Shown: piece by piece, positions 1,375 to 54,094 of the stretch
Layout of the letters: each line of letters opens with the position of its first letter
How positions within the stretch are numbered: position 1 is the stretch's first letter
Origin: a virus
Length of the DNA stretch: 64,000 bases
Virus genome (UHGV): UHGV-0293664
Reading direction: 5' to 3' (one strand)
The notes under the pieces: generated by a model
Told to the model about the DNA's origin: nothing
Databases searched by the model: none
What the model saw: the letters and a program-made list of their open reading frames with translations, nothing else
Position numbers and translations under genes: made by a program

Positions 1375-4300
1375 TGCCAATTGCAATGATTGATAACATC
1401 GTTGCTTCTGCAAGATCTTCAAGTTATGACTGGAACGCATCCAAGGCAGCTCTGGCTGACAGCCTGAACACTGTTACCACCAGAACTCTGGATAAGATTT
1501 TTGAGGGCAACAAATCTTACAGAAGTCAGCAAGATAGACAAAAGCTTCTCAGATCTTCTGCTGCACCCTGCTCTGTAGTGTATGGGAAGACACGCACATC
1601 CGGATTGCTTGCGTTTTTGGAGCAGGACAGAGACAGAACCCTCCATTGTGCTATTGTTCTTGCCAATCATCCTCTAGAAGGTATAGAAGACATACTCATC
1701 GACGGTAATCCTATTTCCTCGTATGGAGATCTGGTATCGTGGGAGCTACATAACGACAGAAAAACATCTGATCCTTTCATGGGTACACACTGCCCATCAT
1801 GGTCACCTGACATGATAGGTAGAGGGATCAGTTGGCTACGTGCCAGCTTCAGGTTTGACCCTAACAAGTTTCCTTTTGGGTTGCCAAACGTTACACTCGT
1901 TAAGGTTGGTAAAAAATGCTATGATCCTCGCATCAGTAAAGAGGTGTATACCAATAACGCGGCCTTGGTGATTCTAGACTATTTAAGAACGTACCTTAAA
2001 TGTCCTGACGAAACCATCAACTGGGAGTCCTTCAAGGAGGCTGCTAACATATGCGACGAGGCGGTAAAAAACGCAGACGGAACCAGTGAGCGCCGATACA
2101 CCATTAATGGCGAGTTTGACATGGACGAGGCTCCGGCAAGCATTATGGCAGAAATGCTGAAAGCTTGTGGCGCAGATCTCAGCTATGTAGCTGGTAAGTA
2201 TGGTTTGCTGGTTGGTGCATACTATGGCCCGGCAACAATGACGCTGAGTGAGGATTGTGTCTGTGGTGAGGTTAAGATCTATCCGGAAGCCTCGTTTGAC
2301 AAAAGATCCAACACAATAACTGGCAGATTCACCAGTCCGACCAAAGGGTATTCTGAAACAGATTTTCCATCAGTGTTTGTCCCAGAGTGGATAGAGAAGG
2401 ATGGAGAAAGAAAGATAATCGATATAGACTACCGCTTTGTTACCAGCCCTTATCAAGCTCAGCGTGTTTCTGCAATATTTTTAAGACGTGCTAGAGCTGG
2501 CAGGATTATTGAAGTCACCTGCAATATGCGAGGTTTTAAATTTAAACCTGGCCGTTACGTTACAATGAATCTCCCAAGTATTGGTATAGTGGGCCAAGAA
2601 ATGAGGGTTCTTGAGTGGGAGTTCACCAAAAAGGGCGGTGTCAAGGTAAAACTTCGTCAAGATGCTAAAGAGTGGAATGATGCCACAGGGCAACTTCCGG
2701 ATTCTGGCGATGTAGATATTCCGATATCCCCATCCGGTGTAGCTCAACCGCAAAACTTCAGATACTCCGTCCTCCAAGCTGGGGAAATAACTCACGGTGT
2801 TCTGGCTTGGGACAACGTTGGGACTTACGCTCAAAATATTGTGCAGGTAAGAAAGAACGGAGAGATTGTTTGGACAGCACAGACAGTTGAGCAGTTTGTC
2901 CGAGTAGAAGGCTTGACCAAAGGGTCATACACAGCAACCGTGGTTGCAACATCCTATAAAGGTGGTGTATCTCCAGAAGCGTACTGCGAGTTTAACATTC
3001 AGGCACCTGAAGCTCCGGTTTCTGTAGAGGTTAAGCAGGGATATTTCGCTATCACCTTGATTCCGCATAGTAGGGATTTAGCAAGCGTAAGCACCCAGTA
3101 TGACTTTTGGACATCTGGTATGACAAGGTTGCCAGACACCAGTGATGCTACCGTTACTTCAAAAGCCACCCGTATGGGTGTTGGTTCAACTTGGACGTCT
3201 GAAGGTCTCCAGAACGATAAGGTTTATTATTGGTATATTCGAACCACAAACGCTTTTGGTAGCTCTCAGTTTGTAGAATGCGCTGCACGCTGCTATACCT
3301 CTATTGAGGATTTGATGCCTCAGATAGATGCTGAATTCAAAAAGACAGAAACTTATAAAGAGTTGATGAGCACTTTGGATTCCTCTATTGAAGAGGTTGA
3401 AAATCGTGTCACAGAACTTAACAGGTACATGGATGGTAGGGTAGATGAAGCGTTCCAACAACTTGGGGACAGAATAGGTGCGGTAGTTACAGAAACAACT
3501 CAGAAGTTTGAAGATGTCAATGGTAACATTACAGCGCTGGATAGGAAACTTGTTGCTGCACAGAACAAATTCACCAACGATCTGAACACTGAAAGTGGCA
3601 GACTGGCATCTCTGATCGAGACAACCAATAAAGCAACTACTGATCTTCTGAACAAAAAGACAGAGGCTTTAGATGAGAAATTGGTTGCCGCCAAAGGTGA
3701 GCTGGTAGAGCAGATAGAGGGAGTTGAGAGCGGGTATTTAGCCGGAGATAAAACTCTGGATGGTAAGATCAATACTCAGAGAACAGAACTTGACGCAAGC
3801 ATCTTGAGCACTAACCAGGCAACTGTGGATCTTTTGAACAGGACATCTGAAACTCTGGATCAAAAGATCAGTCAGACAAACGCGACGGTATCTAAAAACT
3901 ATACCACCCTGGATGGCAAGATAACCACCGCAAAAACTGACCTCAACACCTTGATTGCCAATACCAACAAGGCCACCACTGACTTGTTGAATCAGAAAAC
4001 ATCTGCACTGTCAGAGCAGATAACTTCTGCACGTGGGGAGATTTCTACCAACAAGCAGGCGATTGATGCTTTGGATGGAAAACTGACTTCCACAAAAACA
4101 GCGCTGGATGCTACAATTTCCGATACCAACAAAGCCACTGTGGACCTTATCAACGGCACAGCGTCAGCTATTCGTCAAGAACTTGCTGTTGCTAAGCAGG
4201 AGATCATTGATGATGTTGGGGATGTGTCCGAGATCAGGGCTGCAGTAGCTACAACATCTAAGGCTGTAACCGACTTGGAGGGTAAAGTAAATGCTCAGTG

Positions 4301-9578: not shown

Positions 9579-9590
9579 TCAGGAGATAAA

Positions 9591-10631
9591 ATGTCAAAAC
9601 CTAGTTTTCCATTAGAGATTTGGGCAGAGGAGGATCAGGTTCTGCCTAACACCCACAGACAGAACAGGCTACGCCCGATTGATGATTTGTGGAGAAAAGG
9701 TTGGGATCTTGGTCAAAAGCCATCCTGTGAAGAACTTAACTATATTTTCAATATGCTCGGGACTTGGGCAAAATACATTGCTGACGAGCAGATCCCCGCT
9801 CAAGAAGGCCGCTATCTGGTACGTGATAATAACTTGAGTGATCTTTTAAACATCCCTGTTGCCCGTAGAAACCTTGGAATTATTACTAAGGAAGAGGCAG
9901 ACGCCAGGTATGTAAAAGTTACAGGTGATACAATGACAGGCCCATTGGGTTTGCAACGTATCAACTTTAAAGCTGCCGAGACAGATAAGGCTTGGATAGA
10001 GACAACTATTGGCCCAGATAAGACAACTCTTGACTTTGGGTTAAGTGATAATATTGGGGCGTTCGATGATGGTGGCACATCTACAGTGGATGCGTTCCGT
10101 TGGAGATTCCAGCCAACTCAGCCGGACATTAATCCAGAGTTCACTTTAATGTACCTGAACGCAATCACGGCTAATCGTGCGTTGTTGAAAGTGGTGGGCA
10201 ATGTTGAAGTTGTTGATAACATGCGGTGTAATAACCTCACCATTAGTAGCACAGCAACATTCACTAACTGCAATGTAGCCAGTCAGTTGACAGCTGGGTC
10301 AGTATATGTCAATGGCGGTGCAAGTTGTGATAGTATGGTTGTAAGAAGCCAGCATTGTGTTGTCGGTAACAGAAATGTGGTGCGCTCTGTGAATGGAGTG
10401 ACGGCTAACGGCAACGGCGATGTAACGATCACCATCCCACAGACAGGTGTACAGGATATCAGAATCGGTGCAAGACTTGTTGATGGCGTTTCTGAATCTC
10501 CAATCCGCAACGGATACGTTGTCACAGGTTGGCATTTTGGTGACAAAAAAGAGATGCGTGGTTCAACTTACTGGGCAGGACCTTTACAAAAACTTGTAAA
10601 TGGTCAATGGATCACTGTTAATTATGCATAG
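9591..10631 (+). CDS. Tail fibre / receptor-binding protein, paralog A
   Basis: 346 aa; N-term MSKPSFPLEIWA and C-term KLVNGQWITVNYA shared with 11646..12689. Confidence 0.65.
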   Translation: MSKPSFPLEIWAEEDQVLPNTHRQNRLRPIDDLWRKGWDLGQKPSCEELNYIFNMLGTWAKYIADEQIPAQEGRYLVRDNNLSDLLNIPVARRNLGIITKEEADARYVKVTGDTMTGPLGLQRINFKAAETDKAWIETTIGPDKTTLDFGLSDNIGAFDDGGTSTVDAFRWRFQPTQPDINPEFTLMYLNAITANRALLKVVGNVEVVDNMRCNNLTISSTATFTNCNVASQLTAGSVYVNGGASCDSMVVRSQHCVVGNRNVVRSVNGVTANGNGDVTITIPQTGVQDIRIGARLVDGVSESPIRNGYVVTGWHFGDKKEMRGSTYWAGPLQKLVNGQWITVNYA

Positions 10632-20444: not shown

Positions 20445-20645
20445 TTAGTAATATTCCCAACACGACCCATCTTCAGACGGCTGGACACGCTTACCTTCAT
20501 GATCGACATAGGTGTAACCACAGCCTTCACAGATAACAGGTGCCGCATAACCTTCCTTCCACTGCTTCTCCGTGATCAATCCTTTCAGATCTCCGCAGTC
20601 ACGACCAAACAACTCTTCAGAACAGTCTTTACAAAAATCAGCCAT
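20445..20645 (-). CDS. Small zinc-ribbon-like protein
   Basis: 66 aa; CxxC...C...CxxC pattern. Confidence 0.45.
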   Translation of the reverse strand: MADFCKDCSEELFGRDCGDLKGLITEKQWKEGYAAPVICEGCGYTYVDHEGKRVQPSEDGSCWEYY

Positions 20646-20714
20646 CTCTATCAGTCTCCATATTTAACCAATCTGTATTACATATTGCCGAAGAAACAGT
20701 ATTTCATTTCATCA

Positions 20715-20933
20715 TTACAGATCTCCAACAACTTCCCAAATACCCCAGTGAGCATCCATATCCTTGATAAAGTATCTTTCTCCACGGTTTGTCCACACAC
20801 CTATCCCAACTTTACCATCTATCCCATTGTATACATCTGCCTCATACTCTTTGCCCGGTGTAAAGTGTACACCCATCATAAGGGCTGTTATTCCGTTAGG
20901 ATTTTTAAATTTAACAAATTTTACTTTGCTCAT
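20715..20933 (-). CDS. Small hypothetical protein
   Basis: 72 aa; shares IKDxDxxWG-type motif with small proteins near the polymerase gene. Confidence 0.45.
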   Translation of the reverse strand: MSKVKFVKFKNPNGITALMMGVHFTPGKEYEADVYNGIDGKVGIGVWTNRGERYFIKDMDAHWGIWEVVGDL

Positions 20934-20934
20934 A

Positions 20935-21264
20935 TTACTTAATCCTTGCAGTTACAGTAGCGCTATACCCCATGTAGTTATGAGACATAAAGAATGTAAG
21001 CCCTTTAAGTTCAGGATTCTTTCTAAGAAATCGTTTCAATTTTCGAATGCAATTAACACCATGATCATAGTTTGAGAAATTAAATTTAATACCCTGCTCT
21101 ATCATAGTGCACACTTCTTCATGGGTATGCCATTGTCTATCGTGGTCACAAAACCAGTAACCAATACTTTCTTTTTCTTGGATATGCAACCCCCAAAATA
21201 CTTTATGCATTGGATATTTTGGTTTTCTACCATGATAATGTAGTTTAATATTCACATGTGCCAT
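20935..21264 (-). CDS. Hypothetical protein
   Basis: 109 aa; His/Cys-rich; 1-nt gap to downstream gene. Confidence 0.45.
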   Translation of the reverse strand: MAHVNIKLHYHGRKPKYPMHKVFWGLHIQEKESIGYWFCDHDRQWHTHEEVCTMIEQGIKFNFSNYDHGVNCIRKLKRFLRKNPELKGLTFFMSHNYMGYSATVTARIK

Positions 21265-47743: not shown

Positions 47744-48109
47744 ATGGAACAAATGAACGATCAAACGTCGGTTGCGATGAACGAGCAAGAACAACCTCAA
47801 GAATTTTTCTTAGGGTTAAGTAAAGATCAAGTGTCTCTTCTGCTAGTGCTTTCTTCTTTCATGGGAAGACTTCAGGAGCTTACACAACAGCCAGAGGCTG
47901 AACAATTATTCCAGGCTCTGCGTGAAGAAGAAAAATATCGTCGTTTGGACTATGCCTTAGGTTGGGTAGCTCAACAACGAGATATGCTGATGGCCCTCTC
48001 TGGGACCACAAGTTTTGCAATGGGCCTGTTGGCTCAAGTTCAGGACAAATTAATTCAAGCAGGGTTTGCACACACGGCAAACACTAACGAAGAACAAGGA
48101 GACAAATAA
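47744..48109 (+). CDS. Hypothetical protein
   Basis: 121 aa; stop overlaps SSB-like start. Confidence 0.5.
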   Translation: MEQMNDQTSVAMNEQEQPQEFFLGLSKDQVSLLLVLSSFMGRLQELTQQPEAEQLFQALREEEKYRRLDYALGWVAQQRDMLMALSGTTSFAMGLLAQVQDKLIQAGFAHTANTNEEQGDK

Positions 48110-49335
48110 TGAGCGTTATTCAACAATTCGCTAACCCGATGAATCCGCGTGAAACTGTTTTACTGGCTCACGGCATGATTAAACGTGTCAGCATCAAGCC
48201 TATCAAGGGTGCTGATCCTACAACAGGTATTAAAACCACTGTGTGGCAAGGTAAGAAAATTGAATCCAGCCACACCATCTCTTTACTGATTTCTGAACTG
48301 GATTCCTCTGATAACCTGCTTCAAGGTGGTGAAGAAGTTTGGATCAGTATGGGTGATAAGCTGCTTAAACCTGGTCATCAAGACTCTGTCTCTGTTAAAA
48401 TTGATGACAAGTGGGAAACCGTAACGCCGGGATGGATCGTAAATATCCCTTTGAAGGCAAACGAGCATAAAGGTAAGACCTATTACAAAGGCTCACTGGC
48501 TAAGATGGTCAAGCTGGGTGCAGGAGAGGCTCCAGCAGCGACTCAGCAGCAAAAACAGCAACAAGGTGCACAATCACAAGGCCAGAAGCAGAAACCTCAG
48601 CAGAATGCCAATCAGGACGTTTTACGCATCTATGGTGATGTGACTCAGATTGTTGGCAACGTGGTTACTGTTAATGACCACAAGATTGGCGAAGGTGCTA
48701 TGGTTGTCACTGATGAGCAGCTTAAAGACCTGGTGGTAGGTGGTCGTGTTGCAGCCATTGTTGACAAAGACACCGGAAACATTATCAGTGGTTTCAAAGC
48801 CTACCCACCTAAGGAAGAGAACGGCACTCAAGGCTCTGGTGGCAAGCGTAAATCCTCTTACGACCCTATCGGTGTGGAAACGGGGCATAGCATCAATGCG
48901 TTGCAGATCATCCTGGATCGCGGGTTTAAGGTAGACGACCCACTGGGCGTGGCTAAAACACTGCACGTAGTCACCATTGAGCTTAAGAAAGAGTATGCTC
49001 AAGCCACCAACCGAACTGAAGATGAAGTAGGTGCCAGTGTCGGTAATGCGGTGTTGAACGCTTGTCGCCGTATTGACAAGAAAACGAAAGTTGATGATTT
49101 TGCAGCGGCAATTACTGCAGAAGCAAAAGATGTCTTGACTAATCTGGCTGAGCCGTTGTACGATTGGATCAAGAACGGTGCTGGGTCAACTGACCATCAA
49201 GAACCTCAGGCTGCCAAACAGGAAGCAGCTCCACAGCAAAACACTGTAGACGCTCCTCCTGTAAATGATGAGGAAGATGACCCAATGGATCAGAATCCAG
49301 CACAGTACGCCTTTGATGATGACATCCCTTTTTAA
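48109..49335 (+). CDS. Single-stranded DNA-binding protein-like
   Basis: 408 aa; Gln-rich linker; C-terminal DDDIPF matches the E. coli SSB tail tip. Confidence 0.55.
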   Translation: MSVIQQFANPMNPRETVLLAHGMIKRVSIKPIKGADPTTGIKTTVWQGKKIESSHTISLLISELDSSDNLLQGGEEVWISMGDKLLKPGHQDSVSVKIDDKWETVTPGWIVNIPLKANEHKGKTYYKGSLAKMVKLGAGEAPAATQQQKQQQGAQSQGQKQKPQQNANQDVLRIYGDVTQIVGNVVTVNDHKIGEGAMVVTDEQLKDLVVGGRVAAIVDKDTGNIISGFKAYPPKEENGTQGSGGKRKSSYDPIGVETGHSINALQIILDRGFKVDDPLGVAKTLHVVTIELKKEYAQATNRTEDEVGASVGNAVLNACRRIDKKTKVDDFAAAITAEAKDVLTNLAEPLYDWIKNGAGSTDHQEPQAAKQEAAPQQNTVDAPPVNDEEDDPMDQNPAQYAFDDDIPF

Positions 49336-49349
49336 CAATTAGTTAACAT

Positions 49350-49378
49350 AGCCCTGCCCGAAAGGGTGGGGCATTTTT
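49350..49378 (+). terminator. Rho-independent terminator
   Basis: CCCTGCCC-GAAA-GGGTGGGG hairpin then T-run; same as 38638. Confidence 0.75.
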
Positions 49379-49397: not shown

Positions 49398-49814
49398 ATG
49401 ACATTAGAAGATATCATTGTTAAACCTGAGAACTATGACCAATACAACCTGTCAACTCAATCTGTAGACCTCGGATGCGCCACAGTCAGTGCATGGCTGG
49501 TTAACGGAAAAGAGCTTGACGAGTGCCTGGAAGCACACATGTCGGTGAATAAATTTCTTGATGAAAATACCCACTGGCTAGAGGGTGCAGGAGTATATGC
49601 TTCATGGTTGGAGAGTATGGGATTCGACTACCAATCTGAAGAGGGGTGGTGGAGCTATTTAGCTATCTGCCCAGAGACGCTGCAATGCTTCATGAAATAC
49701 TCTGAAGATTTGGAGTACCGGGCGGTGGTTGATAGTGCTATTGCCCGTTATAGCCGTAAACCTTTTTCCCACGACATTAAAACTGTGGAAGAATTTGTTG
49801 AAGTTTTCTGTTGA
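49398..49814 (+). CDS. Hypothetical protein
   Basis: 138 aa; AAGGAGA RBS. Confidence 0.5.
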   Translation: MTLEDIIVKPENYDQYNLSTQSVDLGCATVSAWLVNGKELDECLEAHMSVNKFLDENTHWLEGAGVYASWLESMGFDYQSEEGWWSYLAICPETLQCFMKYSEDLEYRAVVDSAIARYSRKPFSHDIKTVEEFVEVFC

Positions 49815-49910
49815 CACAGGTTGAAAGGCGTGCAATTATAACTTCATATAACGGGAGGACGCGATGAACGAAGAAAACTGGGATGTATAACTAACAGGAG
49901 GCCACTGCCC

Positions 49911-50108
49911 ATGATTTATCGAATCCGTGTAAGAGAAGATGCACCAGGCTGTTACTTTGACTGGCGTGGGTGGTGGTTTCTCCACCCGATGGATGGACTC
50001 ACAGATAGAATGCTGGATGCTGCCCTTTATACAGATACCGACATAGAATATAATCTCTATCTGAAGGACGGTATAGATAACGGTCTATTTGAAGCAATTC
50101 CTGTGTAA
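49911..50108 (+). CDS. Small hypothetical protein
   Basis: 65 aa; AGGAGG RBS. Confidence 0.45.
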   Translation: MIYRIRVREDAPGCYFDWRGWWFLHPMDGLTDRMLDAALYTDTDIEYNLYLKDGIDNGLFEAIPV

Positions 50109-50176
50109 GAGACTGTGATAGCCATGTTTTATGATCTTCCTGTAGCACCACCACCTGTTGAACCCGGAGAACTAAG

Positions 50177-50602
50177 ATGACCTATGAAATGCCAAAACTG
50201 ATTCGTGACGATGCCCAAAACGCCCACACCTTTATCATGGGCAAACGCATGGATATTATTTGTCATAAAGATTTCTGGGAAGGAAGTTACTTCACAGAGT
50301 ATTTTGGTAAACTGGACAATGGTCTGCTGATCCAGTTCTACACCGATGCGGAAAACAACATTCACTGGGAGTTCGAAACTGAAGATATCCATAAACTTTT
50401 CACCTTCCTCGGTATTAAGGTTGAGGCCAAGTTTGAAGAAGGTGAGTGCGACGATTGTGGATTCTATGAGGTAACAGATTTCTATCTCCCGAGTGGTGAG
50501 AACCTTTACTATGAAAGCCACTTCGGTAACTCCAATATGCCACAGTGCTGGACTGAGTTTTTTGAAATTGCGGAAGAGGAGCTGGCATACCGTGATTATT
50601 GA
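50177..50602 (+). CDS. Hypothetical protein
   Basis: 141 aa; GGAG RBS. Confidence 0.5.
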   Translation: MTYEMPKLIRDDAQNAHTFIMGKRMDIICHKDFWEGSYFTEYFGKLDNGLLIQFYTDAENNIHWEFETEDIHKLFTFLGIKVEAKFEEGECDDCGFYEVTDFYLPSGENLYYESHFGNSNMPQCWTEFFEIAEEELAYRDY

Positions 50603-51050
50603 TACTGTAGAGGGGGATTTAATCTCCCTTTTTAAGAGCGGTGCTGGTCACCTGATCCACGGTTGCAACTGCTTCCACACAATGGGCAAGGGGATAGCAA
50701 AACAGATCGCCCGTGAGTTCCCTCAAGCACTGGCAGCTGACAAAGAGACCAGACATGGTTGCCTAAGTAAACTGGGCGCGTTCTCAAGATGGGAGCACTT
50801 ATCTCCGATAGGTATTGTCTACGGAATAAATCTGTATACTCAGTTCTACCCAGGGCCTAATGCTGAATATTTCTCAATCCTGAAAGGCTTTGAGCGAGTC
50901 AATGAGGTATTCGAGGGATCGACTTTACCATTCTACATCCCTAAGATCGGGTGCGGCATAGGCGGTTTGAAGTGGGAACACGTAGAGGACGTTATTAACC
51001 TTGCCACTTTCGACATAGATATTGTCGTGGTGGAGTACAAAAAGTGTTGA
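50592..51050 (+). CDS. Macro-domain (ADP-ribose binding/processing) protein
   Basis: GTG start after GAGGAG; GAGHLIHGCNCFHTMGKGIAKQI and IGCGIGG resemble macro-domain glycine-rich motifs. Confidence 0.5.
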   Translation: MIIDTVEGDLISLFKSGAGHLIHGCNCFHTMGKGIAKQIAREFPQALAADKETRHGCLSKLGAFSRWEHLSPIGIVYGINLYTQFYPGPNAEYFSILKGFERVNEVFEGSTLPFYIPKIGCGIGGLKWEHVEDVINLATFDIDIVVVEYKKC

Positions 51051-51075
51051 CGACAATCTTCTGAGGTGATATAGT
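51047..51075 (+). promoter_or_regulatory. sigma70-like promoter
   Basis: TTGACG, 17-nt spacer, TATAGT. Confidence 0.55.
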
Positions 51076-51104
51076 TTCCACAACAACTAAGAGAGGAGAG
51101 CACT

Positions 51105-51275
51105 GTGGAGACTAAAATCTTAATTCTTGCTGTGGTAGATACAACCGAAGGAGCTATATTCGAATCTGCAGGAGGGTATTTCTACCTACCATACGGAAAA
51201 AGAACTTCCGAGCCAAGTAAAGATTCAATCCTCAAAGTGTTCCCGTGTGCTTTCTGGCTGGAGATTTTGGTATAA
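51105..51275 (+). CDS. Small hypothetical protein
   Basis: 56 aa ORF below track cutoff; GTG start after AAGAGAGGAGAG. Confidence 0.3.
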   Translation: METKILILAVVDTTEGAIFESAGGYFYLPYGKRTSEPSKDSILKVFPCAFWLEILV

Positions 51276-51301
51276 GATTGCAGAGGATTTGGGAGAGAAT
51301 T

Positions 51302-51500: not shown

Positions 51501-51529
51501 TTGACATCTGAAAACTGCAGTGTATAATA
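51501..51529 (+). promoter_or_regulatory. Consensus sigma70 promoter
   Basis: TTGACA, 17-nt spacer, TATAAT. Confidence 0.6.
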
Positions 51530-51762
51530 TACGCATAAACTAACAGAGAGCGATGTATTATGGTAATTTTTAACCGGGATGGTATCATAGTTAGACAGCA
51601 CCCGTTCCTTGAATACTATCAAATTGAGCAATGGTGCTACGGGGATTGCAGTCACTCCTATGGACAAAGTTGGGGGGTATCGCACAGTTTTTGAATCAAC
51701 AGATCTTGACAAAGTAAGACAGAAAGTTTTAGAACTTCTTAACAACAAGTGAGTATCGTGCC

Positions 51763-52880: not shown

Positions 52881-52909
52881 TATTTTAAGTTATCAGGTTG
52901 CCAGAGATC

Positions 52910-52945
52910 AGGAGGATTTCTAAAATGGATTTCCTCCTTTTGATA
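52910..52945 (+). terminator. Possible terminator at operon end
   Basis: AGGAGGA...TCCTCCT stem with 15-nt loop then TTTTG. Confidence 0.35.
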
Positions 52946-53191
52946 TTTTACCTGCCAGGATATTTTAAAATCCTTAGAAAATCAGAAAATGGATCGAAAA
53001 CTAAAATGGATTTTTCAGGGCAGGCACGACGAGATGAACCACTCATCCTGTCGTTTGCACCATATTCCAGACCACCATTACAGATTTCCCGCACATGCTT
53101 ACATCCTTCTACTGGAACTTCCTCCGCTTGCCCTTGACCTTTTATGGTAATAATCCAACCACTATCTTGAAGTTGCGATGCAGCTTTTCAG

Positions 53192-53354
53192 GTACTCGAT
53201 CTGTTTTTCGTTTCAAAGATTGAATTTTCTGAAAATTTTTCTCGATAAATTTCTCAGTACTCGATCTGTTTTTCGTTTTCTGAATCGGATTTTCTGGAAA
53301 TCGTTCCGGCTCTCGACCTGAAATTTTTGGGGACGAAATCGATTTTTCGTTTTC
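53192..53354. repeat. Iteron-like direct repeats, three copies
   Basis: Repeat unit TCGATYTKTTTTTCGTTTTC at 53192-53214, 53257-53280 and 53334-53354 in AT-rich non-coding DNA. Confidence 0.7.
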
Positions 53355-53481
53355 AGAAATGGATTTTTAAAATTTCTATATGGGAATATTTTATGGGATA
53401 CTGTTTTATAGGAAATTGTTACGGAGGGTAATTAGCGTGCTAATTAAATTTATGAAATGCGAGGAGTTCTCATTTAGAATT

Positions 53482-53500
53482 TTGAATGATAATCATTCTC
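53482..53500. promoter_or_regulatory. Fur-box-like palindrome A
   Basis: TTGAATGATAATCATTCTC matches 15 of 19 positions of the E. coli Fur consensus; contains perfect palindrome GAATGAT-A-ATCATTC. Confidence 0.4.
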
Positions 53501-53514
53501 GTTTGCAGAATAAC

Positions 53515-53538
53515 GGGCACCCCCGGTGATTGTCTCCC
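53515..53538. repeat. GC-rich conserved element, copy 1
   Basis: GGGCACCCCCGGTGATTGTCTCCC; related copies at 53655 and, inverted, 62331. Confidence 0.6.
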
Positions 53539-53617
53539 GGCCCCTGTTGCCCCGGCTTGTTATTATAGTATCACACAGGACAAAGAAAGCAAGGACTTTT
53601 TGCATAAATTTTTAGAC

Positions 53618-53636
53618 GATAATGATAATCGTTCTC
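53618..53636. promoter_or_regulatory. Fur-box-like palindrome B
   Basis: GATAATGATAATCGTTCTC matches 17 of 19 positions of the Fur consensus. Confidence 0.5.
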
Positions 53637-53654
53637 ATTTCATGCAGCGCCCAT

Positions 53655-53692
53655 CCCCGGTGGTTGTCTCCCCCGTCACCGGTGCCTGCCGT
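53655..53692. repeat. GC-rich conserved element, copy 2
   Basis: CCCCGGTGGTTGTCTCCCCCGTCACCGGTGCCTGCCGT; reverse complement of 62331-62378 is near-identical. Confidence 0.6.
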
Positions 53693-53844
53693 CCTTTCGA
53701 TATGTATATTGTGCCACCTGGCGGGGCCGCTGTCAACACTTTTCAAAAAATTTTTCTAACCTGATGCGCTAACCGTTGCAACCTGGCGGGGCCAGCCTGG
53801 CAGGTCCGCGTTATAAAGTAAACAGCTACGGAAGAGGTACAAAA

Positions 53845-53994
53845 ATGAAAGGTAATGCTACTCGCCTGGAAAATGTAGTAATTGATGATACGGAAGCTAT
53901 CGCCCTGGTCGAGAAGGTTGAAACGGAAGCGCGGGAACATAAAGAAGAGTACGAAAAAATGGTAGTTAACCTGGCGGGGGCGATTCTATCATAA
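53845..53994 (+). CDS. Small hypothetical protein
   Basis: 49 aa from ATG 53845 with GAAGAGG RBS; first gene after the non-coding island. Confidence 0.4.
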   Translation: MKGNATRLENVVIDDTEAIALVEKVETEAREHKEEYEKMVVNLAGAILS

Positions 53995-54013
53995 AAATAA
54001 TTTAAAATAATCG

Positions 54014-54042
54014 TTGACAGCTCGGACAGCTATTGTTATTCT
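54014..54042 (+). promoter_or_regulatory. sigma70-like promoter
   Basis: TTGACA, 17-nt spacer, TATTCT. Confidence 0.5.
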
Positions 54043-54094
54043 TATCCTCGCAAGGTGAACAACACCACACCAATTAACAGAGAGGATAAAAATC

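Follow-up and report, generated by a model that had tools for sequence, protein, structure and literature searches.

An rV5-like Vequintavirus encodes a macro-domain protein related to T4 Tk.4 (AdfM) and may thereby carry a counter to DarTG2 defence

The window considered here, a 64,000-nucleotide stretch of virus genome UHGV-0293664, is part of an rV5-like Vequintavirus (E. coli phage) and carries a gene for a macro-domain protein (Table 1). The open reading frame at 50592-51050, which the sequence-only reading had described as encoding about 152 amino acids with glycine-rich segments, is present as read from the sequence (a GTG start, 152 codons and TGA), with GAGHLIHGCNCFHTMGKGIAKQI as residues 17-39 and IGCGIGG as residues 119-125. 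The GTG start is supported in three independent ways: the identical 459-nt CDS is annotated as 'macro domain protein' in phages HdK5 and HMD-6, the ATG of Shigella phage Sf20 stands in exact alignment with the GTG of the window (ATGATTATTGAT vs. GTGATTATTGAT), and codons 1-30 show 0-1 nonsynonymous vs. 2-3 synonymous changes. The GAGGAG ribosome-binding site is also kept in HdK5 and HMD-6. Because the start of the macro gene overlaps the preceding ORF (50177-50602) by 11 nt and its ribosome-binding site lies inside that ORF, translational coupling of the two is plausible. The gene is under purifying selection, with a dN/dS of about 0.1 (0.087 vs. HdK5 and 0.122 vs. HMD-6).

Table 1. Features of the macro-domain gene and its upstream region (positions are those of the window).
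Feature	Position	Strand	Remarks
Intrinsic-terminator-like hairpin, strong	49351..49372	+	Closes the preceding transcription unit; macro gene in the next unit of small genes
Sigma-70-like promoter candidate, TTGACA-17-AATTAT with TG	49811-49839	+	Consensus match
Sigma-70-like promoter candidate, TTTATA-17-TATAAT	50026-50054	+	Consensus match
GAGGAG ribosome-binding site	50576..50581	+	10 nt 5' of the GTG; inside the 3' end of ORF 50177-50602
Macro-domain gene	50592..51050	+	152 aa, GTG start, TGA stop; ortholog-level relative of T4 tk.4/adfM
G8-D9 codons, Gly-Asp after strand 1	50613..50618	+	Invariant in the 7-protein alignment
Loop 1 / catalytic loop, H23-G-C-N26-C-F-H-T-M-G32-K33-G34-I-A36	50658..50699	+	G24, N26, G34 and A36 invariant in 47 members
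N80-L-Y-T-Q84 motif	50829..50843	+	N80 and Q84 invariant in the family
Loop 2 / diphosphate-binding loop, P117-K-I-G120-C-G122-I-G-G125	50940..50966	+	P117, I119, G120 and G125 invariant

A terminator is annotated in HdK5 at the place homologous to the upstream hairpin. Sigma-70-like sites are enriched upstream of the macro gene (26 vs. 13.4 +/- 3.6 in shuffles), all of them being consensus matches only. Since the gene lies in a cluster of small genes with such promoters, downstream of the replication module, its early expression is probable. The neighbouring genes are listed as hypothetical proteins in annotated relatives, and the ten neighbour proteins that were scanned all match only PHROGs without known function; the neighbours therefore give no clue to function, and an anti-defence island at this locus was rejected. 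The same scan of ten neighbours found no darT beside the macro gene in this lytic phage genome, and neither an Rfam nor a tRNA scan of the window gave a match.

The resemblance of the encoded protein to macro domains is far beyond chance. The Pfam Macro model (PF01661) is matched with 28.4 bits, above its gathering score of 22 (E=1.7e-6), and the PHROG_335 profile with E=2.5e-60; the latter family, which bears the legacy name 'phosphatase', includes the window protein, T4 Tk.4, PhiKZ gp104 and a Thalassavirus macro protein. A profile of the family matched 16 macro-domain sequences in the PDB (E 2.8e-16 to 4.9e-5), and the top PDB sequence match is the Mycobacterium tuberculosis DarG macrodomain. 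The AlphaFold2 model (pLDDT 96.7, pTM 0.91) has the three-layer alpha/beta/alpha macro fold, and Foldseek matched it with probability 1.00 to TARG1, Poa1p, DarG, SCO6735 and viral macro domains; the TM-scores were 0.75-0.85 for TARG1 and DarG (0.76-0.85 for TARG1) and 0.63-0.76 for Poa1p. The call of a macro domain, made earlier from the glycine-rich segments, is thus right by sequence (Pfam, PHROG_335 and PDB profile searches) and by predicted fold. Of the two outcomes that the sequence-only reading had named as speaking against it, lack of a macro fold in structure prediction and lack of the ADP-ribose pocket residues, neither was found: the predicted fold is a macro domain, and G8-D9, N26-x5-G32-K33-G34 and P117-x-I-G-C-G-I-G-G125 are present.

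Conservation of these residues was followed in two alignments, one of 47 homologs, to which all family counts refer, and one of seven proteins (the window protein, T4 Tk.4, SCO6735, BT1257, M. tuberculosis DarG, PhiKZ gp104 and TARG1). The ADP-ribose pocket motifs are complete (D9; N26...G32-K33-G34; G120-C-G122-I-G124-G125) and show little or no variation among family members; the exception is K33, where Ala is the usual residue. The G8-D9 site we take to be the position that touches adenine in macro domains. In loop 1, N26 aligns with N22 of Taq DarG, N23 of PhiKZ AdfM and N27 of SCO6735, and K33 with K34 of SCO6735; in loop 2, G120 and G122 align with G126 and G128 of SCO6735, and G124 with D125 of TARG1. 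According to the alignments, the Q84 site holds the catalytic Lys in DarG, TARG1 and PhiKZ AdfM, and the essential Gln85 in SCO6735. Of the catalytic residues, N26, Q84 and the Gly loop are invariant in the 47 members; the catalytic Lys of DarG and TARG1 is absent, being replaced by Q84.

This substitution bears on how the protein relates to the better known macro hydrolases. The DarG macrodomain (M. tuberculosis, 5M3I; Taq, 5M31/5M3E) and human TARG1 (4J5R) share its macro subclass and provide its best PDB sequence and fold matches, and their chemistry is the same in kind as that proposed here, namely the removal of ADP-ribose, including thymidine-linked ADP-ribose (T-ADPr). The sole NCBIfam match is likewise to the macro half of the DarG DNA ADP-ribosyl glycohydrolase model NF048014 (E=1.2e-12). 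An identity as a DarG antitoxin was nevertheless rejected, as the match scores 47.8 bits against an equivalog cutoff of 250, which calls for the C-terminal DarT-binding domain in addition to the macro domain, covers only model positions 3-141 of 338 and goes with a missing catalytic Lys: the Lys of DarG (K80 in Taq, after a conserved Thr), which aligns with the Lys of M. tuberculosis DarG, K78 of PhiKZ and K84 of TARG1, is Q84 in the window protein. The C-terminal DarT-binding domain of DarG was not found in the NF048014 match. The Lys84/Asp125 dyad mechanism of TARG1 (human OARD1) was rejected too, since Q84 and G124 occupy those sites. PhiKZ gp104 (AdfM, a chimallivirus DarG2-like antitoxin) removes T-ADPr from DNA and counters DarTG2 (PMC13309987). 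It resembles the window protein in being a stand-alone phage macro domain of PHROG_335 with the loop-1 Asn (N23 there, N26 here), but it is only about 20% identical (hhalign probability 97.4), has K78 in place of Q84, and is a late-expressed protein, imported into the phage nucleus (PMC13309987).

A characterised enzyme with the same substitution is SCO6735 of Streptomyces coelicolor (PDB 5E3B), which, though it lacks a catalytic Lys, hydrolyses thymidine-linked ADP-ribose on DNA and rescues DarT toxicity; its Q85A and Q85E variants are inactive and G128E lowers activity (PMC9411070). All SCO6735 residues whose mutation abolishes or lowers T-ADPr-DNA hydrolysis are matched in the window protein (N27/N26, K34/K33, Q85/Q84 and G128/G122). 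Both SCO6735 and Bacteroides BT1257 (2FG1) have Gln at the catalytic-Lys site together with the conserved H, N, K and Gly-loop residues, as does the window protein; they are, in distinction from it, cellular proteins, about 24-27% identical to it, with G-Q where it has T-Q. SCO6735 also has an extended, mobile, Lys-rich loop (K89/K94) after the Gln, proposed as the source of DNA processivity (PMC9411070). This loop is absent from the window protein in the alignment (QFYPGPN vs. QHGMKTGSKGAP), where the segment lacks Lys and is shorter by about 5 residues.

The nearest characterised homolog is T4 Tk.4, to which the window protein is 40% identical over the full length (E=9e-42, 124 bits). Both are single-domain proteins of about 150 aa within PHROG_335, with the motifs HGCNCFHTMG, NLYTQF.PGPN.EY and P(K/R)IG.GIG in common. 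They differ in the family of the phage (Vequintavirinae vs. Straboviridae), in their neighbour genes and at K33, which is Ser in T4 Tk.4. The RB49-like phage Sf20 encodes, at the syntenic vs-tk.4-tk locus, a protein with 70% identity to that of the window; vs-tk.4 synteny as in T4 was rejected for the window locus, where the product of ORF 50177-50602 shows no homology to T4 Vs (E=34), and is found only in Sf20. In a bootstrapped neighbour-joining tree (28 taxa, 200 replicates), the window clade and T4 Tk.4 group as sister clades with the Adpp representative, Brizo gp167, outside (184/200 replicates, 92%). PhiKZ gp104 clusters with M. tuberculosis DarG, apart from the Tk.4 clade (195/200), so PhiKZ AdfM is, on this tree, probably a separate recruitment. 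Monophyly of the phage family relative to the cellular references is weak (82/200), and its grouping with SCO6735 and BT1257 rather than with DarG only moderate (126/200). The gene product is best explained as an ADP-ribosyl hydrolase that consists of a single macro domain and belongs to the Tk.4/AdfM lineage of phages, in the TARG1/ALC1-like class.

A clean knockout of tk.4 renders T4 sensitive to DarTG2, a phenotype specific to that system, and the gene was for this reason named adfM (anti-DarT factor Macrodomain); the evidence there is genetic only, with T-ADPr DNA hydrolysis inferred (bioRxiv 10.1101/2025.11.20.689424). Homology to a protein required against DarTG2 thus lends support to the anti-defence role against DarTG that had been suggested for the window protein, though 40% identity to T4 Tk.4 is no guarantee of a common substrate. 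From these comparisons, we infer that the substrate would be T-ADPr DNA, the role one against DarTG2 and the expression early; the removal, by an enzyme expressed early, of the ADP-ribose that DarT2 puts on phage DNA appears the most likely function, and a somewhat probable one. Under this proposal, the enzyme would probably be made early from promoters read by the host RNA polymerase. Once host DarTG2 is triggered, DarT2 would block replication by ADP-ribosylating thymidines of single-stranded phage DNA. The enzyme would then bind this ADP-ribose, using D9, the N26-GxG loop and the P117-G125 diphosphate loop, and would hydrolyse the bond between thymine and ribose, so that ADP-ribose is set free and the DNA can be replicated again. 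Catalysis would follow a Lys-independent, Gln-type route as in SCO6735, with Q84, held by N26, positioning the distal ribose, rather than the route used by DarG, TARG1 and PhiKZ AdfM, whose catalytic Lys is lacking here.

A rather unlikely alternative is that the enzyme acts chiefly as an ADP-ribose-1''-phosphate (ADPR-1P) phosphatase of the Adpp type (Poa1p-like), converting the ADPR-1P made by RES-domain NADases such as aRES to ADPR. The legacy name 'phosphatase' of PHROG_335, shared by the window protein, T4 Tk.4 and the Thalassavirus macro protein, points this way, as does Brizo gp167, a further member of that PHROG, whose gene is flanked by Adps- and Namat-like genes; it shares 37% identity (73 bits) and the H-x-C-N-C and N..Q motifs with the window protein. 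In the related phage Gary, Adpp was shown to remove the phosphate from ADPR-1P in vitro (bioRxiv 10.64898/2026.01.28.702374), and Poa1p is among the top fold and sequence matches, with its H23 aligned to H23 of the window protein; the site of Poa1p F152, however, is Gly here. From homology to Brizo gp167 and Poa1p, an ADPR-1''-phosphate phosphatase activity of the window protein is plausible. Such an activity within the same family also fits the other option of the sequence-only reading, the degradation of ADP-ribose-derived molecules. The setting speaks against Adpp as the chief role: the Adpp of NARP1-AP (Vibrio phage Gary gp137, represented by Brizo gp167) has Adps and Namat on either side and acts only with both, defeat of aRES having needed all three (bioRxiv 10.64898/2026.01.28.702374), whereas the macro gene of the window is not in a NARP1 operon and its neighbours are unrelated small genes. 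When the window and the whole genome of the close relative HdK5 were searched by tblastn with Brizo Adps and Namat, no homolog of either was found (best E 0.27), so a purely Adpp-type role would be without its pathway, and an expected presence of NAMPT/Prs genes in rV5-like phages was not borne out by this search. The window protein is also nearer to T4 Tk.4 than to the Adpp representative, at the 92% bootstrap support given above. The active-site signature cannot tell AdfM from Adpp activity, because Brizo gp167 has the same HxCNC and N..Q motifs. Positions 24, 30, 33, 83 and 124, which differ between the Tk.4 clade and Brizo Adpp, were considered as discriminators and none is diagnostic, because the G-Q and Ala variants of Brizo also occur in SCO6735, a DNA T-ADPr hydrolase.

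About equally improbable is that the enzyme erases another kind of ADP-ribosylation, be it on protein or RNA (e.g., uracil-linked ADPr) from host toxins or defence ARTs, or deals with the products of phage NAD-using enzymes, such as O-acetyl-ADP-ribose or the ADP-ribosylation made by a sirtuin-like protein that relatives encode beside RNA ligase and Pnk. TARG1-like macro domains, SCO6735 included, also act on protein-Glu-ADPr and U-ADPr RNA, and soluble ADPr derivatives were argued, in a survey by comparative genomics, to be the targets of most phage macro domains (PMC9503650). In HdK5, an 'NAD-dependent protein deacylase' adjoins RNA ligase A, Pnk and a phosphoesterase; this sirtuin-like gene is, however, about 85 kb away and not co-transcribed with the macro gene, near which no ART partner stands among the ten neighbours. 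The DarTG2-specific phenotype is, moreover, the only experimental one for T4 Tk.4. There is very little probability that the protein is a non-catalytic binder of ADP-ribose, serving as a sponge or sensor of immune signals (Thoeris-type gcADPR, His-ADPR) or as a stoichiometric DarT-binding inhibitor. Macro domains can be pure binders, as the ThsA macro domain binds His-ADPR, and catalytically dead SCO6735 still inhibits DarT in vitro by interaction (PMC9411070). Against this, the invariance across the 47 members of N26, Q84 and the Gly loop, which are catalytic in SCO6735 and DarG, favours an enzyme over a binder, and the match to NF048014 (positions 3-141 of 338 only) leaves out the DarT-binding domain of DarG.

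The finding of a macro gene is correct yet fairly ordinary. Macro domains are reported from about 40% of medium-sized phages (PMC9503650), and homologs of this protein were found in 2,723 of 50,697 phage records; since the label 'macro domain' already stands on the gene in several GenBank relatives, the gene itself is no surprise. A wider, tentative reading is that Tk.4-type macro domains form a Lys-less, Gln-type lineage recruited independently of the DarG-type PhiKZ AdfM, in which one active site may serve two counter-defences, the removal of T-ADPr from DNA against DarTG2 and the dephosphorylation of ADPR-1''-phosphate against RES-type NADases, with the presence or absence of NARP1 deciding which of them matters. 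The rV5-like enzyme would then be bifunctional, and AdfM of T4 and Adpp of Vibrio phages, both recently named as counter-defence enzymes, would be one enzyme family with one active-site signature, a Gln where DarG, TARG1 and PhiKZ AdfM carry the catalytic Lys. This raises the testable question of whether the family is bifunctional and whether phages acquired anti-DarT macro domains twice. If the proposed function is true, rV5-like phages (Vequintavirus) would carry a built-in counter to the DarTG2 toxin-antitoxin defence; as these phages are candidate agents for the therapy and biocontrol of E. coli O157 and related strains, such a counter would help to explain and predict their host range.

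The open reading frame proposed in the sequence-only reading exists, and its translation from the GTG start includes both peptides quoted there. The start is supported by three independent lines of evidence: an identical 459-nt CDS is labelled "macro domain protein" in two close relatives, HdK5 and HMD-6; the ATG of the more distant Shigella phage Sf20 aligns as its codon-for-codon partner; and codons 1-30 show 0-1 nonsynonymous versus 2-3 synonymous differences. With dN/dS over the entire gene at 0.087 against HdK5 and 0.122 against HMD-6, the macro-domain gene is genuine and shaped by purifying selection. Public phage records annotate it inconsistently. In the relatives Alma (9582-9950) and 241Ecol014PP (20583-20951), the CDS begins at an internal ATG (Met31), yielding 122 aa and dropping strand 1 and the invariant Asn26; additionally, the label 'Putative macro domain protein' is placed in Alma on the next small ORF (10005-10175).

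Coordinates of the macro-domain gene and surrounding features in the window
Feature	Position	Strand	Remarks
Macro-domain gene	50592-51050	+	GTG start, 152 residues (ORF list and sequence)
GAGGAG Shine-Dalgarno	50576-50581	+	Read from the sequence, 5' of the GTG
Upstream ORF, 141 aa	50177-50602	+	11-nt overlap between its stop and the macro-domain gene start
Strong terminator-like hairpin	49351-49372	+	Ahead of the macro-domain gene's unit
Gene for 408-aa protein	48109-49335		Two transcription units upstream of the macro-domain gene; PHROG_4477, unknown function
Next small ORF	51105-51275		PHROG_15268; counterpart of Alma 10005-10175
Perfect sigma-70 consensus	51501-51528		TTGACA-16-TATAAT, just 5' of the split 63-aa gene
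Overlapping ORFs	51560..51694 and 51609..51752		Split conserved 63-aa gene (PHROG_6957; HdK5_00035)
G-run	about 51672-51677		One G longer than in HdK5 and HMD-6
ORF-poor stretch	about 52900-54050		About 1 kb, dense direct repeats
Three repeat copies of about 50 nt	53192, 53257, 53331		Spacing 65 and 74 nt
Paired repeat elements	53485/53621 and 53518/53652		About 135 nt apart
17-mers	53712, 53777, 53965

A megablast query covering 50100-51300 matched 119 phage records (115 of them with at least 80% query coverage), which were rV5-like Vequintavirus genomes with identity up to 96.8%, including EdH4, rV5_ev isolates and BASEL-type isolates. In the annotations of relatives, a long run of small, co-directional genes, this gene among them, lies downstream of a helicase/primase/DNA polymerase I module. 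Sigma-70-like promoter motifs are enriched nearby (26 observed vs 13.4 +/- 3.6 expected), and the region would fit early or middle transcription by the host polymerase. All ten neighbouring proteins matched solely PHROGs of unknown function. The 408-aa protein, with a long Gln-rich low-complexity middle and an acidic C-terminus, is conserved among relatives, and the terminator-like hairpin comes after its gene; in 241Ecol014PP an additional 'endonuclease' gene is inserted directly after its counterpart. Downstream, the extra G that splits the 63-aa gene may reflect either an error in sequencing the homopolymer or a true pseudogene. Gene content around the repeat stretch varies among relatives, Rfam and tRNA scans of the stretch gave no match, and an iteron-like or regulatory role is conceivable for it.

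The resemblance to ADP-ribose-binding macro domains was borne out by a Pfam PF01661 match above the gathering score (28.4 bits vs 22, E=1.7e-6), alongside a match to PHROG_335 (E=2.5e-60). Searched against the PDB, the family profile matched the macrodomain of Mtb DarG, the DarTG antitoxin (E=2.8e-16), the cellular macro domains BT1257 (E=7.5e-16) and SCO6735 (E=1.6e-15), human TARG1 (E=3.7e-15), yeast Poa1p (E=9.6e-15) and Taq DarG (E=7.9e-14). An AlphaFold2 model built from the 47-sequence family alignment (pLDDT 96.7, pTM 0.91) had TARG1 as its top Foldseek match in the PDB (E=5e-10, TM 0.78/0.84), followed by Poa1p, Taq and Mtb DarG, Thermosipho DarTG, BT1257 and SCO6735; the predicted fold thus places the protein among the TARG1/ALC1-like macro domains. 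Invariant across the alignment are G24, N26, G34, A36, N80, Q84, P117, I119, G120 and G125. The motifs of the ADP-ribose pocket are in place, and neither objection foreseen in the sequence-only reading, an absent macro fold or missing ADP-ribose pocket residues, holds.

Within the active site, the invariant Q84 (motif N-L-Y-T-Q) stands where Taq DarG (K80), TARG1 (K84) and PhiKZ AdfM (K78) have their catalytic Lys, with profile and multiple alignments concordant, and G124 is the counterpart of TARG1 Asp125. T4 Tk.4 has the same T-Q, and SCO6735 (Q85) and BT1257 likewise carry Gln at this position. For SCO6735, PMC9411070 demonstrates hydrolysis of ADP-ribose bound to thymidine in DNA as well as rescue of cells from DarT; mutants Q85A, Q85E, N27S and K34E are nearly or fully inactive and G128E is impaired. 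The aligned counterparts of Q85, N27, K34 and G128 are all present (Q84, N26, K33 and G122), whereas the longer Lys-rich loop of SCO6735 is not. The protein therefore fits best among TARG1-like hydrolases of the Gln type, rather than those of the DarG type. Membership of DarG itself was rejected: the sole NCBIfam match is to the macro half of that model and scores 47.8 bits, where the cutoff is 250.

Homologs were found by tblastn in 2,723 of 50,697 phage records, among them T4-like phages, whose tk.4 genes show 39-45% identity; compared directly, T4 Tk.4 is 40% identical across its full length (E=9e-42). According to a November 2025 preprint (bioRxiv 10.1101/2025.11.20.689424), a DarTG2 host makes a single T4 gene, tk.4, conditionally essential, and a clean knockout becomes DarTG2-sensitive; the gene was named adfM, and removal of ADP-ribose from DNA was the authors' inference without biochemistry. 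This homology supports the anti-defence role against DarTG put forward in the sequence-only reading. A second AdfM, PhiKZ gp104, was shown biochemically to strip T-ADPr from DNA and counter DarTG2 (PMC13309987), but is only ~20% identical to the window protein. Sf20 is a Krischvirus of the RB49-like kind. At its syntenic tk.4 position (regB-vs.1-vs-[tk.4]-...-tk; 3001-3456), the encoded protein shares 70% identity with the window protein and only 44% with T4 Tk.4, which links the rV5-like gene with the tk.4 locus and points to horizontal exchange of the macro gene between Vequintavirus and Krischvirus coliphage lineages.

The main alternative, an Adpp-type ADPR-1''-phosphate phosphatase, is improbable. 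According to a January 2026 preprint (bioRxiv 10.64898/2026.01.28.702374), extended NARP1 operons carry, between Adps and Namat, the gene for Adpp, a Poa1p-like phage macro domain that dephosphorylates the ADPR-1''-phosphate produced by aRES defence, and counter-defence needed all three genes. Vibrio phage Brizo (genus Thalassavirus) has its macro gene flanked by Adps and Namat in this arrangement, and its protein, also in PHROG_335, has 37% identity to the window protein, with the H-x-C-N-C and N..Q motifs in common; therefore, the active-site signature cannot tell AdfM from Adpp. Phage Gary presumably belongs to the same genus. Two results nonetheless speak for AdfM in this gene. A tblastn search with the Brizo queries found no Adps or Namat in the window or the entire HdK5 genome (best E-value 0.27), so the pathway giving Adpp its function is absent there. 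In the NJ tree, moreover, T4 Tk.4 forms the sister branch of the window clade, and the two group apart from Brizo Adpp in 184/200 bootstraps; Mtb DarG pairs with PhiKZ gp104 in 195/200, and deeper nodes are weak (82/200 and 126/200). PHROG_335, generically named 'phosphatase', covers T4 Tk.4, PhiKZ gp104, the Adpp representative Brizo gp167 and the window protein, and since its members differ in catalytic residue (Gln or Lys) and documented activity, automatic labels from it are uninformative.

It is equally doubtful that the protein erases another ADP-ribosylation or serves a sirtuin-like partner. Protein-Glu-ADPr and RNA-borne uracil-ADPr are further marks that TARG1-like enzymes remove, and in relatives a sirtuin-like protein adjoins RNA ligase A, Pnk and phosphoesterase genes, but a scan of the neighbouring proteins found no partner gene close to the macro-domain gene. 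A non-catalytic role as a pure ADP-ribose binder is unlikely because the catalytic residues are invariant. In HdK5, the cluster at 99258-101821 (polynucleotide kinase, phosphoesterase, RNA ligase A and a sirtuin-like 'NAD-dependent protein deacylase') is a further NAD/ADP-ribose-linked module of these phages.

Overall, the protein is a further member of the Tk.4/AdfM-Adpp phage macro-domain family, and its most likely role, held with moderate confidence, is that of a predicted DNA ADP-ribosyl glycohydrolase reversing DarT2. Where the PhiKZ-type AdfM has Lys, the T4-type lineage has Gln, and phages appear to have recruited the two separately; T4 AdfM and Adpp belong to a single family with a common active-site signature. 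Neither the split nor the kinship was found in the consulted parts of the literature on these enzymes, and both are mildly novel points. The shared family and signature of T4 AdfM and Adpp raise the possibility of a bifunctional enzyme combining the two activities.
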